The notes under the pieces were generated by a model, which saw nothing but the letters and a program-made list of their open reading frames with translations, was not told where the DNA came from and did not search any database. Made by a program: the position numbers and the translations under genes. 64,000 bases of DNA. Origin: a virus. The DNA lies in IMG/VR virus record IMGVR_UViG_3300045110_000102, positions 1 through 64,000 of that record. One strand, written 5' to 3'. This document shows positions 41,763-63,524 of this stretch, piece by piece. Positions within the stretch are counted from its first letter, which is position 1. Every line of letters begins with the position of its first letter.

Positions 41763-42293
41763 ATGCCTTACGTCACTGGATTCCTGAACGTTCACGAGGG
41801 CGGACAGCCCGACAACGCGCTGCCGGGTGGCGGCGGTCACCCATCGCAGGGACTGCCCGGCCACGGTCACCCGGGCCAAGGCCTGCCGATGCCGCCCAGC
41901 GGGACGCTGCCTGCGCCGCCGCCCGGCATGTGGCCGCCGCCGTCGCTCGGCAACCCGATCCTGCCAGCACCTCCCGGCACGCCGCCCGGCACCATCTGGC
42001 CATCGCCGGGACTCCCCGATCATCCGAGCAACGTGCTCCCGGGTGGCGGACACGCGAGCGGCCAGCCGATCCCGCCGCCGCCCGGCGGATCGATTGACAA
42101 CACGCTGCCGAGCGCGCCGCCGCAGGCAGGCAACGGTCTGCCGTCGAAGACCTACTGGATGATTTGCTACGCGCCGAATCTCGGATGGAAGTACGTCGCG
42201 GTCGATCCGTCGCTGACGCCCGGCCAAGGCTTGCCGCCTGCATCGGGCTCGATTGACAACACGCTGCCGCAGGCACCAGCGCCGAAGAAGTAG
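41763..42293 (+). CDS. Pro/Gly-rich low-complexity protein with DNTLP and GQGLP repeats
   Basis: GGGAG RBS; internal repeats. Confidence 0.75.
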   Translation: MPYVTGFLNVHEGGQPDNALPGGGGHPSQGLPGHGHPGQGLPMPPSGTLPAPPPGMWPPPSLGNPILPAPPGTPPGTIWPSPGLPDHPSNVLPGGGHASGQPIPPPPGGSIDNTLPSAPPQAGNGLPSKTYWMICYAPNLGWKYVAVDPSLTPGQGLPPASGSIDNTLPQAPAPKK

Positions 42294-44740: not shown

Positions 44741-44921
44741 TGGAGACCAGTGCAGATCGAACGAGAGCGGCTTCCACCGGATGGCCGTTCTCTTCCAGAA
44801 GGTTGATCGCGCTGTTGACGACTTCAACAAGCCGCCCATTGCGAGCGATGCTGCGCCGAAGTGCAGCGGCGAGATGCTCTCCGACTCGGAGCATGCGCTC
44901 GGTCCTCTCATCAGGCATCAT
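44727..44921 (-). CDS. Hypothetical protein
   Basis: Overlap packing. Confidence 0.6.
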   Translation of the reverse strand: MMPDERTERMLRVGEHLAAALRRSIARNGRLVEVVNSAINLLEENGHPVEAALVRSALVSIDSE

Positions 44922-45358
44922 CCCATCTTCTTCGTGAAGTCGTCGCACGCGTCGCGGATCGCCTTCGACAGATTGCTGGCTGTCTCGATCAGCAGCTTGG
45001 TGTGCTCGCCCTTGTTGCGTATCTGCTTCGCCGCTTCCTCGATGGTCTTGAGGTCGTGAAGCAACTCTGTCTGCGAAGCATCAAGCTGCGGCATCAGCGC
45101 CTTCACCATGTCGCCGAGCTTCTCGACCTGCTCCGCCGTGTGCTCGTACTGCGTCATCACCGCTTGCGCAGAGAGCTTGCCGAGATCGGGATTGTGCGCG
45201 TCGAGCATCGGGATGCCGTCCTCACGCGCGGGCGGCGGACGGCGCACCACTTCGGAGACTTCTTCTTCAAGCGTGCGCAGGTTGATGTGCTCGCGGCTGC
45301 GCGCCGGTGGGCGGACAGCGTTGCCGGTGCGCGGCAGTGTTGGCAGTTGTTCGTTCAT
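44918..45358 (-). CDS. Coiled-coil hypothetical protein
   Basis: AAAGGAG RBS; heptad-like C-terminal half. Confidence 0.75.
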   Translation of the reverse strand: MNEQLPTLPRTGNAVRPPARSREHINLRTLEEEVSEVVRRPPPAREDGIPMLDAHNPDLGKLSAQAVMTQYEHTAEQVEKLGDMVKALMPQLDASQTELLHDLKTIEEAAKQIRNKGEHTKLLIETASNLSKAIRDACDDFTKKMG

Positions 45359-45379
45359 TCGGTCGCTCCTTTGATGCGT

Positions 45380-46948: not shown

Positions 46949-47884
46949 TTACGCAAGGCCTTCAGCCTTCAGTCGAGCGTCGATGCGCGCGCGCTTCTCG
47001 ATGCCGATGCCGAGCGCATCAAGGTCACCCTCGCCCGGTCCCGGCCAATGACCGGCGTCGATGCACCGGCGCACCTCGCGCATTGCCCATCGGTTCATCT
47101 GCCGACCGCGTCCCAAGTCTTCCTCGACCAGCGGGACGGTGCGCGCGCAGTACGGGCTCGCGGTCTCGACGAACATTAGCATGAACGAAGCGAACGGCAG
47201 ACCGAGTCCCTCGCAGACTTCGCCGATCAGCGCGCCTTGCTGCTGATATCCGAGATCGTGGATCGACGCCTGCAGCGCGTACGATGTCACCTCGCGCGCA
47301 GTCTTGAGATCAACGAAGTCGTCTTCCGTCGGCGGGATCACGTCGGGCCGCACCTTGATCCAGAGTCCAGTCTCCTTGTCCTTCCAGAAGCCGGAACACT
47401 CGACGTAGCCAGACAGCAGACCTTCATCCACCAGCGGTTCGAGCTTGAGACTCTTCGCCATCTGCACGATGGACTTCAACTCCTTCACCGTGACGATCAC
47501 GCGGCCTTCGCGTGCTTGCCGCTCATTCCATTCCTGACAGGCGTGCGCGTTGTTATTCCACTTCTTCTCTTCACCGGTCTTGCGGTCGCGATAGGTCTCG
47601 GGCTGCGCGGTGAACTTCGCATCGAACTTGTCTTCGCCGAGCAGCAGGTGATGCGCCGCCGAGCCGAGCAGCATCGGTCGCGTCACTTCGCGCGCTTCAC
47701 TCTCTGGGTTCTCGCACCACTGCGCGTGCATGTGCTTCGCGCTCTTGCTCCAGAGCGTGCGCAGGTTCGATGATGACACCGTCGGACCGTCGCAGAGGTC
47801 GGCGCTGTGATAGCGCTCGATGGGGATGCCCGAGTACCAGCCGGGCTTGGTTATTTTCTTGCCAGTCCACTTCGTCACTTGCAC
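46949..47884 (-). CDS. RecE/exonuclease VIII-like PD-(D/E)XK nuclease (DUF3799)
   Basis: YHS...VSSSNL, LGSAAH, KVRPD...VDLKT, GYQQQGA. Confidence 0.85.
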   Translation of the reverse strand: MQVTKWTGKKITKPGWYSGIPIERYHSADLCDGPTVSSSNLRTLWSKSAKHMHAQWCENPESEAREVTRPMLLGSAAHHLLLGEDKFDAKFTAQPETYRDRKTGEEKKWNNNAHACQEWNERQAREGRVIVTVKELKSIVQMAKSLKLEPLVDEGLLSGYVECSGFWKDKETGLWIKVRPDVIPPTEDDFVDLKTAREVTSYALQASIHDLGYQQQGALIGEVCEGLGLPFASFMLMFVETASPYCARTVPLVEEDLGRGRQMNRWAMREVRRCIDAGHWPGPGEGDLDALGIGIEKRARIDARLKAEGLA

Positions 47885-47928
47885 CTTGGTTGCTCCTTTG
47901 GTGTCGTCATAAATTGAGTCGAACGGCG

Positions 47929-48293: not shown

Positions 48294-48736
48294 ATTGGAC
48301 CGATGCCGCCGATGCGATGCTGGTCAAGCTGTGGGATAGCGGAGCCTCGCTCGGCTACGTGGCGGATGGATTGTGCCTCGCTGGCTACGTGGTGAGCCGC
48401 AACTCTGTCGCCGGTCGTAAGCACCGATTGACACAGAAGGGCGTGGTCTTCCGGCGCGTCGGTCCACCGATCAGGAGCAAGCCACTACGACAGCCTATCA
48501 ACCAGCAACGGAGCAAACGAATGAACACCAAAGCAACTGACACTCCTGTCGAGCCGTTTGATCACAGTACTCACGAGGGCATCGAGTATCTGGAGAACAT
48601 TGATGGATGCAAGGCCATCCTCGGCAAGCGCGGCGGGGCGTGGATGTTGCCGATGGTGTGCGGACGACGGAGGACAAGCGGAGAGCCGTACTGCAACGAG
48701 CACCTGATGATCTACACCAACCAGCAAAGGAAATGA
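48290..48736 (+). CDS. gcrA: GcrA-like cell-cycle transcription regulator
   Basis: NWTD...LVKLWDSGAS...VSRNSVAGRKHRL and C-terminal CK.ILG...CG...GEPYCNEH. Confidence 0.85.
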   Translation: MNWTDAADAMLVKLWDSGASLGYVADGLCLAGYVVSRNSVAGRKHRLTQKGVVFRRVGPPIRSKPLRQPINQQRSKRMNTKATDTPVEPFDHSTHEGIEYLENIDGCKAILGKRGGAWMLPMVCGRRRTSGEPYCNEHLMIYTNQQRK

Positions 48737-51592: not shown

Positions 51593-51617
51593 GCAGCTTT
51601 GAGATAAAGGAGCAAGC

Positions 51618-53165
51618 ATGCTGCAGATTGTTGGATGGCTTCGCCAGAAGATCACCGCAGTCCTGTCCCGATACAAGCGCAAGACGATCCCACCGCCGCC
51701 AGTGCGAGCAACACCGAGGCCGCAACCAGAACCGAATTCAGAAGCCCCTGATGATCGCTTCGGCTACGGTCAGGAAGTGCCGCCCGGGCCGGAGCCTGAG
51801 CCGCCGCGCAAACGCGGACGCCCGGCAGTATCGGAAGAGATCAAGCTGCTTCGGAAGCGGCGTCTCAGTCACGACAAGTTCGTCACGCCACAAGGCGAGC
51901 TACCGCCGCCGGTCACGCGCGAGCCCAAGCCGCGCGTGGAGCGCGTCGAGTTGCCGCCGCTGCCCGAAGCTCCGCCGCCGAGGAAAACCTATGTGCGCGG
52001 CGTGCATCACGAAGACGCCGAGGATGTGCTGTACGACTCGACCGAGTTCTTCGGCATGTTCAACTTCAGAGACACGATCCTGCAGCAACTTGAACGCTAC
52101 TTCGTCTACCTCGCGCGCATGAAGAAGTACGACAAGGATTCCTACGGGCTCTATCGTCAGTACGGCGCAACGCTGCTGCCCTACATCGACACTGGCGCGC
52201 ATGACCGCCAAGGCATGAGCGAGGACGACAAGAAGAATCCACCGGGTCCGCTGCCGCTTATGCCGGAGTGGTTCAACCGCATGCGCCCGACGTTCGGCTG
52301 CTTCGTGTATGGCGCTGATCCCGAGACCGAGAAGTGGGAGCTTGTCAAAGACGCGGAGAAGAAGGGCTTCACGCGGTGGGTGCCGAAGTTCATGTACATC
52401 ACCAAGCACAAGAAGCCGCCGCCGACGCTGCAGATGAAGAGCGGCGGCGACATCTACTCGATGACCGTGTGGTGGGACCGACCGCATGATCCGACCAGCA
52501 AGCGCAAGTACGGCACGCCGACCGAGTTCGGAATGTTCGTCAGCAAGGACGGATCACAACTGATCGCGCTGCGCTCGCTGCGGACTCGCATCGTCAAGAT
52601 ATGGTCGAAGAAGCACAAGCAGAACGTTCGCTTCCCCGAGCGCGTGTGGGAGATACCCGACGAGTTCGAGTCGTGGGCGCGCAACAACGGCGAGGACGCG
52701 CAGCATTTTCTGGCGCGACTCTTCCTCACGTCGGTGGCGCGCATGTCGAACGTGCAGCGCGGCGTCGTGCGTGTCGCCGCCAGCAAGGACAACATGACCG
52801 CAGTGTTCTCGGTCAATCACGAGAAGATGGGATACTTCTTTCAGGATCGCGACATCCACATCGGCGACACCGGCGCGCGCAAGCGCATCTTCCACATGGT
52901 CAAGCCGCACACGCGCAGGGACGGGGCCGAGGTGCCGCTGCACTTCCGTGGCGAGCGCGAGTTCACGTGGGCTGGCTACGACGTGCGCATCACCGTGCCC
53001 GGGTGGGATCACCCGAACTTCGACGAGTTCGACGTCGGCACCATCGATGAGCACTGGCTTGATAAAAAGGAGTTGAAGGGGATGATGAACGAAGAAGAGC
53101 TTGGCCGCAGGCTGGCCGAGCGGATCAAGAAGGCGCAGCACGGGAGACACGATGGTCACCGATGA
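51618..53165 (+). CDS. Hypothetical phage protein (515 aa; C-terminal HMVKPHTR...HFRG motif)
   Basis: AAAGGAG RBS; long ORF with fitting codon usage. Confidence 0.8.
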   Translation: MLQIVGWLRQKITAVLSRYKRKTIPPPPVRATPRPQPEPNSEAPDDRFGYGQEVPPGPEPEPPRKRGRPAVSEEIKLLRKRRLSHDKFVTPQGELPPPVTREPKPRVERVELPPLPEAPPPRKTYVRGVHHEDAEDVLYDSTEFFGMFNFRDTILQQLERYFVYLARMKKYDKDSYGLYRQYGATLLPYIDTGAHDRQGMSEDDKKNPPGPLPLMPEWFNRMRPTFGCFVYGADPETEKWELVKDAEKKGFTRWVPKFMYITKHKKPPPTLQMKSGGDIYSMTVWWDRPHDPTSKRKYGTPTEFGMFVSKDGSQLIALRSLRTRIVKIWSKKHKQNVRFPERVWEIPDEFESWARNNGEDAQHFLARLFLTSVARMSNVQRGVVRVAASKDNMTAVFSVNHEKMGYFFQDRDIHIGDTGARKRIFHMVKPHTRRDGAEVPLHFRGEREFTWAGYDVRITVPGWDHPNFDEFDVGTIDEHWLDKKELKGMMNEEELGRRLAERIKKAQHGRHDGHR

Positions 53166-53976: not shown

Positions 53977-54334
53977 AATCCGAGACCTTTGTCTGAAGCA
54001 AAGGCTGGATGCATTCGCGCGAATAAATACCATCCGCGCCCTGCCATCAAGCATTTTCCCCAGATGAAGGTTCCTCGGTCGGTCACGTCGGCCAAGAACC
54101 TGTTGCTGTGGGATGACTGCTCGGAGGCTCCCGGTCCCAAACACAGCCCGCCGTGATCGTACTGCCCTGAGCCGTGGGGAACGTCAGCTATTGGGCTGGC
54201 CCTTTGTCCACTTTGGGACGGCTGAACCAAGCGAGGACAACGAGTACTTCGGGACCGACCAGCCGGGACAGACCCTGCTGGTTATCCTTGGAGGAAAGTG
54301 GATAGGAGTGTCTGGAATCTGAAAAGGAGCAACG

Positions 54335-54529
54335 ATGACGAAGCGAATGGACTGGCGCAAGACGCGCAAATTCGAAGCGCGCGAAGAGAAGTATTCACCG
54401 GGCAAGGTGCTCGACAATGGTCGAGTGATCCGCGACGCGCCGCGCGATAAACTCGATGAGCGCGCTCGCTACGTAGAGCGCGCGTGGCTGAAGAAGCAAG
54501 GGCTCGGCCCGAACCTGAAGAAACAATGA
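54335..54529 (+). CDS. Small basic hypothetical protein
   Basis: AAAAGGAG RBS. Confidence 0.7.
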   Translation: MTKRMDWRKTRKFEAREEKYSPGKVLDNGRVIRDAPRDKLDERARYVERAWLKKQGLGPNLKKQ

Positions 54530-54563: not shown

Positions 54564-54590
54564 AAGATCGTCAAAGGAGCAACCACGACG

Positions 54591-54902
54591 ATGATGAAAC
54601 AAATTCCATTGAGGACCTACGACCTACTCGGCGGCATTCACAATCAATCGCCGATGGGATTGACGACAGAGAAGCACTGGTTCGTGCACGATAGCGGACG
54701 CCTCGGCATCGTGCTGCTCGACAACATCGACAAGGACTGGTCGTTCGTTGCGCTGGCGCATGATCCGCGCAAGCCGCACGGCATGTCGTTCCGCTGCTAC
54801 GATGTTGGCGCGAGCTTCAATGCGCCTGACGAAGCGCGCGATGCGCTGGCCATCGCGCTCGATCAAGAACCCGATCCAGTCTTCTTCACGGAGTCGGTGT
54901 GA
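54591..54902 (+). CDS. Hypothetical protein
   Basis: TCAAAGGAG RBS. Confidence 0.7.
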   Translation: MMKQIPLRTYDLLGGIHNQSPMGLTTEKHWFVHDSGRLGIVLLDNIDKDWSFVALAHDPRKPHGMSFRCYDVGASFNAPDEARDALAIALDQEPDPVFFTESV

Positions 54903-59488: not shown

Positions 59489-59739
59489 GTCATCACACCA
59501 TCGAGTGGATCGACATGGAGAGGAAGCCGAAGGTCGCGCCGAACCCGGCGTATCCTGATGGCATCGACATCGACCTGTCGCGCGGTGCGGAGAAGACGTG
59601 CACCGTCGAGCTACCGTATCCGGCGAAGCGCATCGGCTACTACGTTGTCGCGTGCACCCAGTGCGACTTGCGCACCGGCATCACGACCGCCGGTCGCCCC
59701 GATGATCCGCGTTCAGTCAAACTGGAGTGCAAGCGATGA
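59485..59739 (+). CDS. Cys-containing hypothetical protein
   Basis: ATGA coupling; C...CTQC...C. Confidence 0.7.
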   Translation: MSHHTIEWIDMERKPKVAPNPAYPDGIDIDLSRGAEKTCTVELPYPAKRIGYYVVACTQCDLRTGITTAGRPDDPRSVKLECKR

Positions 59740-60044
59740 CGCACACGAAGGACCTGCTCGCCGACGAACTGATGAAGCTCGGCCTGATCAACATGAGTCT
59801 GCAGGCGCGCGGCGGCTACTACCACGACTTCCTGTCACCGCTGGCGACGCCGGAGATTCAACTCGTCAACGATCTGGCAGAGGCCGCGCGCAAGCGCAAC
59901 GACATCCGAGACCCGATCATGGAGTTGCGCCAGCGCGTGATCAATGGCGACTTCGATGCCAACCGCGAGGAGAGCGACGCGTGGGCGGCGAGCGAGGAAG
60001 GGCAGGATGCATTCCGCAGGCTGATCAGGGACAAGCCGTCGTGA
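59736..60044 (+). CDS. Hypothetical protein
   Basis: ATGA coupling; GYYHDFLS motif. Confidence 0.75.
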   Translation: MTHTKDLLADELMKLGLINMSLQARGGYYHDFLSPLATPEIQLVNDLAEAARKRNDIRDPIMELRQRVINGDFDANREESDAWAASEEGQDAFRRLIRDKPS

Positions 60045-60301
60045 GCGTGATCGACCGGGTGTCGCTGTGGGATCAGATCGCGGAGGTGAAGCGCGAGATT
60101 GATCAGCGCAAGCGCGTATACGTTAGGATGATTGCGCAGGAGAAGATGACCAAGGCAGAAGCAGAGCGACGCATGACGGTGATGTGCGCTGTGCTGGCGA
60201 CGCTGGAGCGATTACGCGGGCTGGGCAACAAGATCAACGACGAAGGAGAGCCCAATGACTCACGAGGAGGAATTAAAAGCACTGCAGAAGACGGTCCTTG
60301 A
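60041..60301 (+). CDS. Hypothetical protein (QIAEVKREI...RVY family)
   Basis: GTGA coupling. Confidence 0.7.
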   Translation: MSVIDRVSLWDQIAEVKREIDQRKRVYVRMIAQEKMTKAEAERRMTVMCAVLATLERLRGLGNKINDEGEPNDSRGGIKSTAEDGP

Positions 60302-60500
60302 ATTCGAAGAGGTGGCGACACGAGTGGAGGAGAGGTTCACAACGGCCTACGATCCGACCGTTGAGAGCAAGCGGGTCAACGTCTCGATGGGATGGTGGCT
60401 GGTGATCAAGCGCCTCGGGCTGGCGATATGGATCAGCGACACGAAGCCGGAGATCACATCCGGCGACCTGTTGTCGATCAGCATCAAGAAGGTCCCTTGA
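60255..60500 (+). CDS. Hypothetical protein
   Basis: AAGGAG RBS. Confidence 0.7.
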   Translation: MTHEEELKALQKTVLEFEEVATRVEERFTTAYDPTVESKRVNVSMGWWLVIKRLGLAIWISDTKPEITSGDLLSISIKKVP

Positions 60501-60521
60501 GATCGCAGCGGTGATCGCATA

Positions 60522-60626
60522 GGGTCCGGGCCTTCCAGCGGGCGAGACTTGGGTTTGAAGTTTGCTCCTTTGACCAAGACTCCGAGCGGACCGGAGGGGG
60601 CGGCGGCGCAAGCTGCTGCCCCTTCT
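60522..60626 (+). ncRNA. Candidate structured small RNA or 3' UTR with an anti-Shine-Dalgarno loop
   Basis: Nested stems plus a GCAA-tetraloop hairpin with G-U pairs (60597-60622). Confidence 0.4.
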
Positions 60627-60717
60627 GCGCGACTCCTACGTAGGGAACGTCATTGCAACCGGGGAGTTGAGGTCCCGGCGACATCCGTCGCCACCTTGAT
60701 CAAGGAAGGAAACGCAA

Positions 60718-60918
60718 ATGACGAACCAGAATCTGAAGAGCGCCGCCGAACAGGTGAAGGCATCGCTCGACAAGATCACGCAGGCCAAGGACAACCCGCA
60801 GCAGATGCAGCAGGCGATCAACGACGCGAAGCAGAAGGTCGATCAGCTTGTGCAGCAGGCGGACCAAGGTTCACAGCAGGCTGGCAGCGGCGGACAGAGC
60901 CAAGGCCAGCAGCGCTAA
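60718..60918 (+). CDS. Small Gln-rich helical protein
   Basis: AAGGAAGGA RBS; own terminator. Confidence 0.75.
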   Translation: MTNQNLKSAAEQVKASLDKITQAKDNPQQMQQAINDAKQKVDQLVQQADQGSQQAGSGGQSQGQQR

Positions 60919-60919
60919 T

Positions 60920-60962
60920 AAAAAAAGGCCCCCGACCACCACGCGGTGATCGGGGGCTTTTC
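60920..60962. terminator. Bidirectional terminator between convergent units
   Basis: A7-GGCCCCCGACCACC-ACGC-GGTGATCGGGGGC-TTTT. Confidence 0.8.
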
Positions 60963-60966
60963 AGTT

Positions 60967-61173
60967 TCAGTGATGCACGAGCGACATCACGTGTTCAGGT
61001 GTCAGATTATATCTCCTCATCACGAGCAGCAGCATCTCGACCGCAGCGGGGATCGAGTGCTTCTCAGCGATCCATTTCCGAACGGTGGTCTCGTTGACGT
61101 GGAAGAACGTCGCGGAGTCGATCTGCGTCAGCTTGAGATGAGAGATCGCGTCGCGATACTCATCGCCAGTCAT
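60967..61173 (-). CDS. Small XRE-like HTH protein
   Basis: LKLTQIDSATFFHVNETTVRKWI...IPAAV; AAAAGGA RBS. Confidence 0.8.
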   Translation of the reverse strand: MTGDEYRDAISHLKLTQIDSATFFHVNETTVRKWIAEKHSIPAAVEMLLLVMRRYNLTPEHVMSLVHH

Positions 61174-61187
61174 CGGTGCATTCCTTT

Positions 61188-61484
61188 TCAGTAGCGGCGT
61201 TGTGGATAGTAGGGCGCATGCGGTGGCGGCGGCGGGTCCGGGTATCGATTGACGGACACGTTGCTGCCGTAGATCGGATCGCGATATGGATCGACCGGAA
61301 CGCATTGCACGTTGGTCTTCATCTGCAGGCGCGCACCATTGATCGTCGCACTGGGCGGGACTTGGTATAGCGTCTGCGCGGCGTACTCGCAGGCCTCGCG
61401 TGAAGGCCAGTCGGTGTGGTTCGAATCGACAGACACGCTGCCGGTGTTCGACACCACGATCATCGCGTACATCAATCGCCACAT
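61188..61484 (-). CDS. Probably exported protein with two Cys and a Pro-rich tail
   Basis: Hydrophobic N-terminus; GGGAG RBS. Confidence 0.65.
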   Translation of the reverse strand: MWRLMYAMIVVSNTGSVSVDSNHTDWPSREACEYAAQTLYQVPPSATINGARLQMKTNVQCVPVDPYRDPIYGSNVSVNRYPDPPPPPHAPYYPQRRY

Positions 61485-61756
61485 GGTCGTGCTCCCTTCC
61501 TTCGCTCCATGCTGACGATCTCCACCTTGCCGAACGCACCGAACACCGTCTTGACCACGCGGTTCATTGCCTCGTGGTCGCTGGTGTCGTCGTTCGTCAG
61601 GCTGTAGGCAGCGCCGGAGATCATGTCGGCGGCGACTGCCATCAACACGACCGCGACGTCTTCCTCGTCGTCGAGTAGCTGGGTGACCAGCATGACCGAC
61701 TTGCGTGCTCGCTCGACTGCGGTCTTCGCGAGGTCGTTGACAATTGCTTGGCTCAT
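61472..61756 (-). CDS. Hypothetical protein
   Basis: AAGGAG RBS. Confidence 0.7.
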   Translation of the reverse strand: MSQAIVNDLAKTAVERARKSVMLVTQLLDDEEDVAVVLMAVAADMISGAAYSLTNDDTSDHEAMNRVVKTVFGAFGKVEIVSMERRKGARPCGD

Positions 61757-61986
61757 TTCCTGTTGCTCCTTATGGTGCCGGTCTGCTGACCGAGCGGGTT
61801 GTAGATCGTGGTCGTGCCGTTGCTCGTGACCGCGCGCCCGGTGTTCTGACCGAGCGCGTTCGAGAACGTGGTGGTGTTGCCGCTGGTCACAGCGCGGCCA
61901 GTCTCACGACCCATCGAGTCGCGGAAGGTTTGCTGCTGCGCCAGCGCTGGCGAGCACAGCAGCATCAGTGCGAGGAGGACTCTCAT
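61753..61986 (-). CDS. Secreted small protein with three TFxxxxGxxTG repeats
   Basis: Signal peptide MRVLLALMLLCSPALA. Confidence 0.75.
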   Translation of the reverse strand: MRVLLALMLLCSPALAQQQTFRDSMGRETGRAVTSGNTTTFSNALGQNTGRAVTSNGTTTIYNPLGQQTGTIRSNRK

Positions 61987-62537
61987 CGGGCGACCCACGG
62001 TCGGCGCGCCTTCGGCTTCGGGTTGGTCTTCGCGCGGGGCTTCTTCGTCGGCTGATCGAGCAGCCACTGCTGCCCGGCATCGAGGCCAAGCTCGTACAGC
62101 TTCGGCGCGGTGTGACGCGCGAAGAAGAAGTCGAGCACGCCATAGACGCCGTTGCGCAACGCCGCGCGCCGCACGTACGCGGTGGCGAACGGCACGCCGA
62201 AGTAGCCATAGACCTGACCGTTGTCTTCGATGGTCGGATCGACGACGACACCGTCGGCATCGACCAGCCACGCGTGATCGATGCCGACGCCGTGGATGTA
62301 GGCCTTGCCCTCGCAGTAGGTGAGGTCGGGATTCCACAGCGCGGTGTGCAGCGCGTTCATGAAGCAGCCGTGTCGCTCACCGCGCGGTCCATCGTACGTG
62401 TGAGGACCGATGCGATACGCGCGCGCGTGCGCCAGCATGAAGTCGTTGTAGACATTCGGCCCGAAGGCCTCCCGTCGGGTCTCGAAGTCGGCGCGCATGC
62501 CAACTTCAATCTCCTCCGGCGTGAGGGTGTTCATCAT
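61983..62537 (-). CDS. Hypothetical protein (CFMNA...YCEG...HAW motif, papain-like pattern)
   Basis: TCAAAGGAG RBS. Confidence 0.75.
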   Translation of the reverse strand: MMNTLTPEEIEVGMRADFETRREAFGPNVYNDFMLAHARAYRIGPHTYDGPRGERHGCFMNALHTALWNPDLTYCEGKAYIHGVGIDHAWLVDADGVVVDPTIEDNGQVYGYFGVPFATAYVRRAALRNGVYGVLDFFFARHTAPKLYELGLDAGQQWLLDQPTKKPRAKTNPKPKARRPWVAR

Positions 62538-62679
62538 TGTCTTTGCTCCTTTGATTGTTGATGTAGTGAAACAGTGCGACGCGGTCGTTGTCGTCGAGGC
62601 GCACGTCGCTGTAGGTCAGGGCTTCGATTCCTCGGCGCTGGAATAGTCTGGCCAGCGCTGCCAGTGTTCTCTCGTCCAT
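62506..62679 (-). CDS. Small hypothetical protein
   Basis: GGAG RBS. Confidence 0.55.
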   Translation of the reverse strand: MDERTLAALARLFQRRGIEALTYSDVRLDDNDRVALFHYINNQRSKDNDEHPHAGGD

Positions 62680-62866: not shown

Positions 62867-63343
62867 TCAGCCGTTGTTGATCAGGTCGAGCGCCGCCTTG
62901 CCTGTCAACGGCATCTTGCGAGTCTCACCAGACTTCTTCGCCTTCATCTTCGCGATGCGGCCAGCCGCCTTCGCCTTCTTGACCGAGGCCTGCTCGGCCT
63001 TGATCTCATCGGCGACCGCAGCATCCTTCGCGCTCCTACGTAGGAACGTCGGGATATCGAGATCAACGTCGCGCGGTGGCGGCGTGATCGCGGCATGTGC
63101 CTTGACCGGCGGCACCACCGTGACCGGACCATGCGGCGGGTCAGCGATGAATGAACCGGTCGGAGGGTCCGCAACGAACTTCACTTCAGGCTCCGCCGCC
63201 AGCGCCGCGATCATCTTCGCGCGCGCCAGCCGCTTCGCTTCCTTCTCCAGCTTGGCGAGGTTCGTCATCGTCAGCTTGAGCTTCGTCTTGTTCTTCGCGA
63301 TCAGTCTCTCGACGTGATCGAGGTCGCGCTTCTTCTTTGCCAT
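62867..63343 (-). CDS. Basic coiled-coil protein with an internal FtsZ-C-terminal-like peptide
   Basis: TCAAAGGAG RBS; DVDLDIPTFLRR. Confidence 0.8.
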   Translation of the reverse strand: MAKKKRDLDHVERLIAKNKTKLKLTMTNLAKLEKEAKRLARAKMIAALAAEPEVKFVADPPTGSFIADPPHGPVTVVPPVKAHAAITPPPRDVDLDIPTFLRRSAKDAAVADEIKAEQASVKKAKAAGRIAKMKAKKSGETRKMPLTGKAALDLINNG

Positions 63344-63524
63344 GTTGGCTCCTTTGATTGTCAAACAGCCCGCTCGACGAGCGAGCAGGTGAAGTGTAGC
63401 AAACGCACTTGCGCCAAATCGCGAGTCGAGCCGATGCGCATGCAGCAAACCACTGCAGCACAAGGGTCGAGCATCGCGATTTGGAAAACTTGACTCCGAT
63501 AAATACAGGGCGAGACGCGCGTGA

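Follow-up and report, generated by a model that had tools for sequence, protein, structure and literature searches.

A conserved structured RNA of a soil phage with a loop complementary to the shared ribosome-binding site of the phage's early genes

Many early genes of the phage investigated here start behind one and the same ribosome-binding site (RBS), and the 217-nt spacer between two small plus-strand genes, encoding proteins of 81 and 66 residues (Table 1), harbours a hairpin whose loop region is complementary to just this site. An earlier note, made from the sequence alone, had read the hairpin as part of a phage small RNA, or of a processed 3' untranslated region, that shuts off a regulon of early mRNAs as an early-to-late or immunity switch. 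Does the spacer indeed give rise to a conserved RNA, does its complementarity to the early leaders exceed that expected for any strong Shine-Dalgarno (SD) sequence, and which use would such an RNA most likely have?

The window, i.e., the whole stretch of 64,000 nt that was analysed, comprises bases 1-64000 of an IMG/VR virus record of 80,644 bp (G+C 62%) that is rated 95% complete. DNA near-identical to window positions 60200-61000 is found in soil metagenome assemblies from about a dozen (~13) studies, and no RNA runs were found among the sequencing runs listed with the locus. A variant contig, represented by contigs from four soil DNA runs, differs by 4 substitutions in 801 nt, none of them inside the element, which is too few to be informative. 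A search of the phage GenBank collection for similar DNA found none. Because homologues of a neighbouring gene sit in Bradyrhizobium genomes and proviruses, the host of the phage is probably Bradyrhizobium or a close relative. Neither a tyrosine integrase nor a serine recombinase/resolvase was detected in the phage.

We derived the layout of the genome by combining a simple gene caller of our own with a GC3 frame plot, and the division into early and late regions follows gene content and position. Late structural genes are located on the plus strand from ~72.6 kb through the end of the record to 40.3 kb, and the early/DNA-metabolism region spans 40.6-71.3 kb. The latter consists of a rightward block (~48-60.9 kb) encoding a primase and a helicase, a leftward block (47.9-42.6 kb) encoding RecT and a PDDEXK nuclease, and a second leftward block (71.3-61.0 kb) encoding an AAA ATPase and many small ORFs. 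A strong bidirectional terminator (Table 1) lies between the rightward block and the leftward early operon that converges on it; leftward read-through past this terminator would yield an RNA fully antisense to the small RNA considered here. The long ORF at 59558-60301, for which a search of IMG/VR returned no relatives, was rejected as a single real gene based on the GC3 frame plot.

The shared RBS reads (T)CAAAGGAGCAA, followed after 2-7 nt by ATG, and precedes ~17 genes, all of them located between 44.9 and 70.6 kb; its consensus is TCAAAGGAGCAA and then A or C. Late genes are served by assorted ordinary RBSs (AGGAG, GAGG etc.) devoid of the CAA tail. When the 80.6-kb genome is searched for complements of at least 9 nt to the loop region of the hairpin, 22 sites are obtained, 17 of which lie directly before start codons, all in the early region (44.9-70.6 kb) and none at a late gene. 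Likewise, 15 of the 106 called leaders contain a contiguous complement of at least 9 nt, compared with a mean of 0.7 leaders for control sequences in which CTCC was kept and the flanks were shuffled. Within the window, TCAAAGGAGCAA with up to two mismatches occurs 10 times versus 3.2 times expected, a count that none of 100 shuffles attains. The individual matches claimed in the earlier note hold as well: both 13-nt exact complements are located just upstream of start codons (Table 1), and 10-11 nt are matched in the leaders of five further genes, with starts at 47884, 45358, 63343, 51618 and 54335. The element thus presents an accessible, CUCC-containing loop stretch, as is expected for an anti-SD RNA, with 9-13 nt of complementarity to 17 RBSs.

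Pairing energies point in the same direction. With the opening costs of both partners included, 10 early-region genes and a single gene called 'late' reach -8 kcal/mol or below, and the latter call is probably an internal start made by the gene caller. The median energy is -1.1 kcal/mol for early and +3.8 kcal/mol for late leaders (Mann-Whitney P = 8e-5). Part of this contrast is inflated because early genes have stronger SD sequences than late ones, the AAGGAG part of the match being a feature of any strong SD. Our assessment relies on exact-match counts and on accessibility-corrected energies; duplex energies calculated for 28-nt apex segments mainly reflected GC-rich stem sequence and were set aside.

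Table 1. Features of the element, its surroundings and its predicted target sites (window coordinates)
Feature	Position	Strand	Basis or remark
Gene of 81-aa protein, upstream; conserved family (alignment A1)	60255-60500	+	GC3 frame plot, homologue search
Weak promoter-like site TTGAGA-N17-TAGGGT	60497-60525	+	8 of 12 consensus positions
Predicted small-RNA gene, ~100 nt	60533-60632	+	covariance model R1, 73.6 bits
Hairpin 1	60544-60582	+	RNAfold; outer stem GAG.CUUGG/CCAAG.CUC, inner weak stem UUGAAG/CUUUGA
Anti-RBS stretch, complementary to GGTCAAAGGAGCAAACTTC	60557-60575 (core 60561-60574)	+	genome-wide list of complementary sites
Hairpin 1 loop UUUGCUC, 7 nt	60561-60567	+	unpaired probability ~0.99, opening 0.07 kcal/mol
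Hairpin 2	60592-60627	+	16-bp GC-rich stem with G-U pairs, GCAA loop; then CG CGA
Gene of 66-aa glutamine-rich coiled-coil protein, after the element	60718-60918	+	
Bidirectional intrinsic terminator, strong	60928-60957		terminator scan; 13-bp stem, U runs on both strands
Predicted target RBS of gene 44918-45358	45365-45374	-	10 nt
Predicted target RBS of gene 46949-47884 (PDDEXK-like exonuclease)	47890-47900	-	11 nt
Predicted target GGAGCAAAC then gaATG	48510-48518	+	9 nt
Predicted target RBS of gene 51618-53165	51606-51615	+	10 nt; -12.9 kcal/mol
Predicted target RBS of gene 54335-54529	54323-54332	+	10 nt
Predicted target RBS of gene 54591-54902	54570-54582	+	13-nt exact complement
Predicted target RBS of gene 61472-61756	61763-61771	-	9 nt
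Predicted target RBS of gene 61983-62537	62542-62554	-	13-nt exact complement; -11.5 kcal/mol, opening costs included
Predicted target RBS of gene 62867-63343	63348-63357	-	10 nt

The predicted small-RNA gene is built from a conserved 5' block (UUCCAGCG), hairpin 1, a GGACC linker and hairpin 2. As had been described, the core TTTGCTCCTTTGAC caps a stem formed by GAG-A-CTTGG (60544-60552) and CCAAG-A-CTC (60574-60582), and a GCAA-capped hairpin containing G-U pairs comes next. The sequence is as stated, and one point of the description needs correcting: the open loop of the predicted fold is restricted to UUUGCUC, with the CUUUGA part residing inside a weak A-U/G-U stem. Opening the entire 13-nt core costs 2.35 kcal/mol. 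When compared with shuffled sequences, the fold attains a z-score of -2.2 on the plus strand and of -0.3 on the minus strand. A Rho-independent terminator with a 3' U-tract, as looked for in Hfq-type small RNAs, was not found: hairpin 2 is followed by CGCGA, and the terminator scan made no call there, its only call being the hairpin at 60928-60957. Since a U-tract is lacking, both termination at hairpin 2 and Hfq-type binding are doubtful; some homologues possess short U-rich tails. The promoter-like site ends 7 nt 5' of the conserved block and overlaps the stop codon of the upstream gene, and it was not called by a generic sigma-70 scan of the window. Directly 3' of hairpin 2, at 60628-60655 on the plus strand, lies ACTCCTACGTAGGGAACGTC, which may be an operator or a promoter for the next gene (60718).

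Homologues of the element were identified in seven other Bradyrhizobium phage or prophage sequences, and the family considered here comprises eight distinct sequences. The element is located directly 3' of the 81-aa gene in six of the eight homologous loci; loci with this arrangement are L065 (= L066, L067, L085), L069, L064, L070 and L083. A covariance model, R1, was built from five elements downstream of the 81-aa gene and scores 33-78 bits in L065, L070, L069, L064, L068 and L063, the last two being copies that do not adjoin an 81-aa gene. L068 is the same sequence as the site in Bradyrhizobium genome G143. Application of R1 to 151 Bradyrhizobium genomes yielded 4 hits, with true elements only in G001 and G143; the hits L092 and L093 are terminator-like and were rejected as false. 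In G001, the genome of Bradyrhizobium sp. BRP22, the prophage element occupies positions 392929-393010 of NZ_JADYVX010000003.1 on the minus strand. Three DNA pattern scans of IMG/VR returned chance matches or known loci only, as established with BLAST, the covariance model and visual inspection.

The covariation in relatives to which the earlier note had looked is present. In a model-guided alignment of seven sequences, 92.2% of the pair cells are paired, versus ~45% after shifting the partners by 1-3 columns; changes on both sides compensate in 19 of 28 pairs (11 of 13 in helix 1, and 8 in helices 2 and 3, which are 98-100% paired); and 0 of 500 shuffles reach any of the observed structure measures, all of these being generous figures because the structure guided the alignment and its seven sequences are mutually related. 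RNAalifold, applied to a plain MAFFT alignment of five sequences, reports 12 compensatory pairs. There are 43 G-U cells versus 2 A-C cells, and the plus strand is therefore the RNA; 92% of the cells are able to pair if the RNA is read from the plus strand, compared with 71% if it is read from the minus strand. Seven of the eight variants have YUUGCUC as the loop of hairpin 1, L069 has UUUAGCUC, and both arms vary. Upstream, a TAnnnT box is found 5-8 nt before the 5' block, (A/T)TCCAGCG, in all six homologues having the block, and in five sequences a TTGNNN -35 element precedes the box at a distance of N17-18, as in TTGACG-N17-TATGCT of L069 and TTGCAA-N18-TATAAC of L070. The element is thus very probably a genuine, strand-specific structured RNA of ~100 nt, and it is probably a separate small-RNA gene.

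Loop and shared RBS can be followed together through the relatives. In what we term lineage A, the phage of the window and G156 (85 kb, rated complete) have the loop regions GUUUGCUCCUUUGA and GGUUUGCUCCUUUAC, and 15 and, in G156, 17 leaders contain at least 9 nt, and up to 13 nt, of complement to the respective own loop. Lineage B is constituted by G002 and the prophage of Bradyrhizobium sp. BRP22, in which 7-9 clustered genes share the RBS plus spacer (U)UUUGGAGC(A/G)AGC(A/C)A-AUG, i.e., GGAGC(A/G)AGC(A/C)A before the start; the shared site is GGAGCAAGC, and the loop region GGCUUGCUCC is complementary to GGAGCAAGCC. GGAGCAA is followed by G in 9 of 9 of these BRP22 leaders and in most of those of G002, with C as the facing loop base, whereas in lineage A it is mostly followed by A or C and the loop base is U. 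The complementarity envisaged in the earlier note, which in the phage of the window concerns early and not late RBSs, recurs in G156 and, in altered form, in lineage B. AAAGGAGCAA-N2-7-ATG occurs 7 times in the 80.6-kb phage, 13 times in its 85-kb relative and 4 times in an 8.4-Mb Bradyrhizobium genome (8.7 and 15.2 versus 0.048 per 100 kb). For GGAGCAAGC-N1-5-ATG, six copies are clustered in a 4-kb part of the BRP22 prophage, compared with 16 in the other 8.4 Mb, the density per 100 kb being 16.4 in G002 and 0.19 in the host outside the prophage. The density of such sites in the phages exceeds that in a host genome ~90-300-fold, so that the shared RBS is phage-specific and does not reflect a host habit.

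The link between element and regulon is seen in four of the seven element-carrying records examined and is absent in three, two of them incomplete: in G004 (81% complete), G005 (61%) and G157 (95%), the element is present and the shared-RBS gene set was not found. Since these three lack the set, the conserved loop may have another partner. G158, which serves as a negative control, contains the 81-aa gene and lacks both the element and the shared-RBS set. Taken as a whole, the reading offered by the earlier note is thus borne out in part, namely by the conserved strand-specific RNA with its promoter-like box and by the complementarity to a phage-specific RBS of early genes, and weakened by the three relatives devoid of a shared-RBS regulon.

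Comparison with known systems suggests that the element belongs to no described family. Rfam 15, whose families include AbcR/alpha-r RNAs and phage antisense RNAs, gave no match at gathering thresholds for the whole 64-kb window and, for positions 60300-61000 at E-values up to 10, only weak partial hits. BjrC68 (RF02353), a small RNA of Bradyrhizobiaceae with a consensus hairpin nearly identical to the GCAA-capped, GC-rich terminal hairpin of the element, was rejected as an assignment: the local score is 21.0 bits, covers model positions 48-73 only and compares with a gathering threshold of 39 bits (homologue L070 scores 19.1 bits). The likeness is confined to hairpin 2, and the real BjrC68 of BRP22 (G001), which scores 99.8 bits, contains neither the UUGCUCC loop nor a related 5' half. 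AbcR1/2 and NfeR1/alpha-r14-r15 of Rhizobiales regulate several mRNAs by means of a CUCC-type anti-SD hairpin loop. The comparison with AbcR drawn in the earlier note stands as a functional analogy and fails as family membership, there being no Rfam match at the gathering threshold; AbcR-type RNAs are host-encoded and differ in sequence and architecture, whereas the RNA of the phage is proposed to act on genes of the phage itself.

Phage-encoded small RNAs with phage genes as targets are known chiefly as antisense RNAs directed at a single target. c4 of P1/P7, sar of P22 and OOP of lambda are small phage RNAs whose loops pair at or near the RBS of phage mRNAs, and this pairing controls phage development or immunity (PMC12197685). 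Each of them acts on one target transcript that is encoded nearby or on the opposite strand, whereas ~15-17 dispersed genes would be addressed in trans here; compared with the P1 c4-type architecture, where the RNA is processed from the transcript of an immunity operon in which it precedes its only target, targets are many, dispersed and mostly located on the opposite strand. A 2025 review of phage-derived small RNAs describes no RNA that acts on an RBS common to many phage genes (PMC12197685). The T4 endoribonuclease RegB, in turn, cuts within the GGAG of early SD sequences (PMC1702504, PMC3014915), and RegB and the T4 translational repressor RegA resemble the proposed system in that many early mRNAs are shut off post-transcriptionally via a common RBS feature. 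Yet their effectors are proteins, and a base-pairing RNA is proposed here, so that the analogy is purely functional and implies no relation in sequence or structure.

Because the loop of a conserved RNA is the exact complement of the shared RBS, the element is a good candidate for the joint switch-off of early genes, and we assign a probability of roughly 0.5 to its being a trans-acting anti-RBS small RNA that represses the phage's early genes. Transcription of the RNA, its pairing in vivo, the direction of its effect and its timing are what we infer. The small RNA would be produced from its own weak promoter or, alternatively, released by processing at the 3' end of the operon upstream, probably in one of these two ways. 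The loop UUUGCUC would then nucleate pairing on GAGCAA(A) of the shared early RBS, and the duplex would extend into the weak 3' arm CUUUGA to yield 9-13 bp covering the SD sequence and the spacer. Binding of 30S subunits would thereby be blocked, and the mRNAs would probably be exposed to decay. In this manner ~15-17 early genes, among them those of RecT, the PDDEXK exonuclease, the helicase, the AAA ATPase and many small ORFs, could be shut off together, and late structural genes with ordinary RBSs would escape. To be titrated by one small RNA, ~17 mRNAs would require that it be highly abundant or that decay be catalytic. A use in the lytic cycle is favoured for the phage of the window since it has no detectable integrase, and early-to-late translational shut-off appears to be the most likely use there; carriers that are prophages could employ the RNA for immunity or exclusion.

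It is conceivable that the element acts purely in cis as the 3' end of the upstream operon, where a double hairpin would stabilise or terminate the transcript and the likeness to the RBS would be a by-product, e.g., of an old inverted RBS duplication. Its position directly 3' of the 81-aa gene in six of eight loci would fit, as would the facts that no further feature separates it from a convergent gene in four of these six and that hairpin 2 resembles a GC-rich terminator or 3' stabiliser. A terminator, however, needs no conserved 7-nt loop in a separate upstream hairpin; moreover, the elements of L063 and L068 lie away from the 81-aa gene, the promoter-like box is kept at a fixed distance, and the loop flanks vary between lineages in step with the lineage's own RBS set. 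We thus regard a role purely in cis as rather unlikely. What the minus strand might have to offer is hardly credible by comparison: it does read TCAAAGGAGCAA, identical to the real RBSs, and could in principle hold the relic or live RBS of a minus-strand gene, but no ATG, GTG or TTG follows at RBS distance, neither here nor in any homologue, as the earlier note had observed for the window. In addition, the site is kept within a hairpin loop despite 40% protein divergence of the neighbouring gene, the G-U pairs assign the structure to the plus strand, and the minus-strand neighbour ends short of the site in four loci. Absent starts, strand evidence and conservation thus all contradict a relic, which that note had named among the findings that would overturn its reading.

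The RNA could also be directed at the host, be it at host mRNAs through a generic CUCC anti-SD loop or at the GGAGCAAAC segment of 16S rRNA, with the match to the phage RBSs being secondary. The loop core is kept even in G004, G005 and G157, which are devoid of the RBS set; Bradyrhizobium 16S rRNA contains, at 716-729, GGGGAGCAAACAGG, to which the loop region is complementary over 7-10 nt in six of seven variants; and the host genome outside the prophage has 16 GGAGCAAGC-N1-5-ATG sites versus 5 for a reversed control. Nonetheless, the complementarity to phage RBSs is longer (up to 13 nt), involves 15-17 genes and concerns motifs whose density in phages is 90-300 times that in the host, whereas a 7-9-mer match within a 1.5-kb rRNA would arise by chance in several percent of cases and the 16S segment is one that we take to be base-paired in helix 24 of mature ribosomes; host targets appear unlikely to be the main ones. 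Finally, the RNA may not be made for the phage's own timing at all and, instead, enable a prophage or infecting phage to silence early genes of incoming relatives that carry the matching RBS. The carriers G001, G005 and G157 are prophages, the convergent gene beside the element encodes, by eye, a Cro/CI-like DNA-binding protein in four loci, and the loop of prophage G157, whose own RBS set is absent, is complementary over 10-11 nt to seven leaders of G002 and, again by eye, over 13 nt to an RBS of the BRP22 prophage at 387420. Such cross-matches hint at action between phages, but they come from one prophage lineage only, the best matches of the window phage are its own early genes, and neither an integrase nor a resolvase was detected in it, so that exclusion or immunity as the primary purpose seems quite unlikely.

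Returning to the RNA as a repressor of the phage's own early genes, it is tempting to speculate that early genes carry a lineage-specific 'barcode' of RBS plus spacer that is read by a co-evolving small RNA and is usable also between phages, a possibility that we put forward tentatively and consider doubtful in its full extent. If true, the element would do with an RNA what RegB/RegA do with proteins in T4, namely shut off early genes globally. Control of a whole temporal class of genes by a trans-acting RNA through a phage-private RBS would in itself be a new way to organise the programme of phage gene expression and would account for the retention of an identical RBS and spacer by ~15-17 unrelated early genes. 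Under the barcode reading, a resident phage could silence the barcode-matched early genes of an incoming relative, which would amount to homoimmunity or exclusion with a programmable seed, and the pairing of loop and RBS may turn out to be a reprogrammable handle for studying or engineering phage timing and exclusion in agriculturally important soil bacteria. Since one carrier is a prophage of the sequenced isolate Bradyrhizobium sp. BRP22, the idea is directly testable.

The two genes flanking the element encode proteins that could not be placed in known families. For the upstream 81-aa protein, the homologue search yielded 52 hits with the invariant motifs EE..V..R and S.GWWLV..R.G, the closest relatives being P0002 (81% identity) and P0003 (78%), and neither this protein nor the small neighbours gave a match in Pfam or PHROGs. 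Its AlphaFold model is a confident small β-barrel of five strands (pLDDT 86.8), for which Foldseek retrieved nothing at E <= 0.001; VIA-align ranked OB/Mop-like barrels and domains of ribosomal proteins S4e, S17 and S12 highest, with Z-scores up to 5.2, a value within the commonly seen range, and no family was therefore assigned. Based on its linkage to the element in six of eight loci, one idea is that the protein might be a nucleic-acid-binding partner of the RNA. The 66-aa protein encoded after the element had no family match above threshold and no relatives in a search of IMG/VR, and a homologue occupies the same place in phage G156 (L065).

Three further observations concern the pairing partners. 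In a third lineage, formed by G157 and G005, the loop comprises 11 nt between CAUG/CAUG arms, and each genome contains one exact complement to its own loop, at 41777-41787 in G157 (L117) and at 12340-12351 in G005 (L105). The two sites differ at the same base as the loops (GAGCAAGCACA versus GAGCAAACACA), and the G157 site spans the stop codon of a gene together with the start codon of an ORF with a signal-peptide-like beginning; as the flanks are weakly alike and not clearly homologous, this compensatory pair of loop and site was rejected as evidence. Along the 16S rRNA of BRP22 (L208, positions 719-729), the lineages extend the match to GGGGAGCAAACAGG on different sides, which may be chance. 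Between 67.7 and 70.2 kb of the phage genome (G000), three neighbouring leaders have in common a longer repeat around the RBS (about TCAACGCTCAAAGGAGCAACGAC), a pattern pointing to local duplication as the way in which the RBS cassette spreads, or to selection that spans more than 13 nt.
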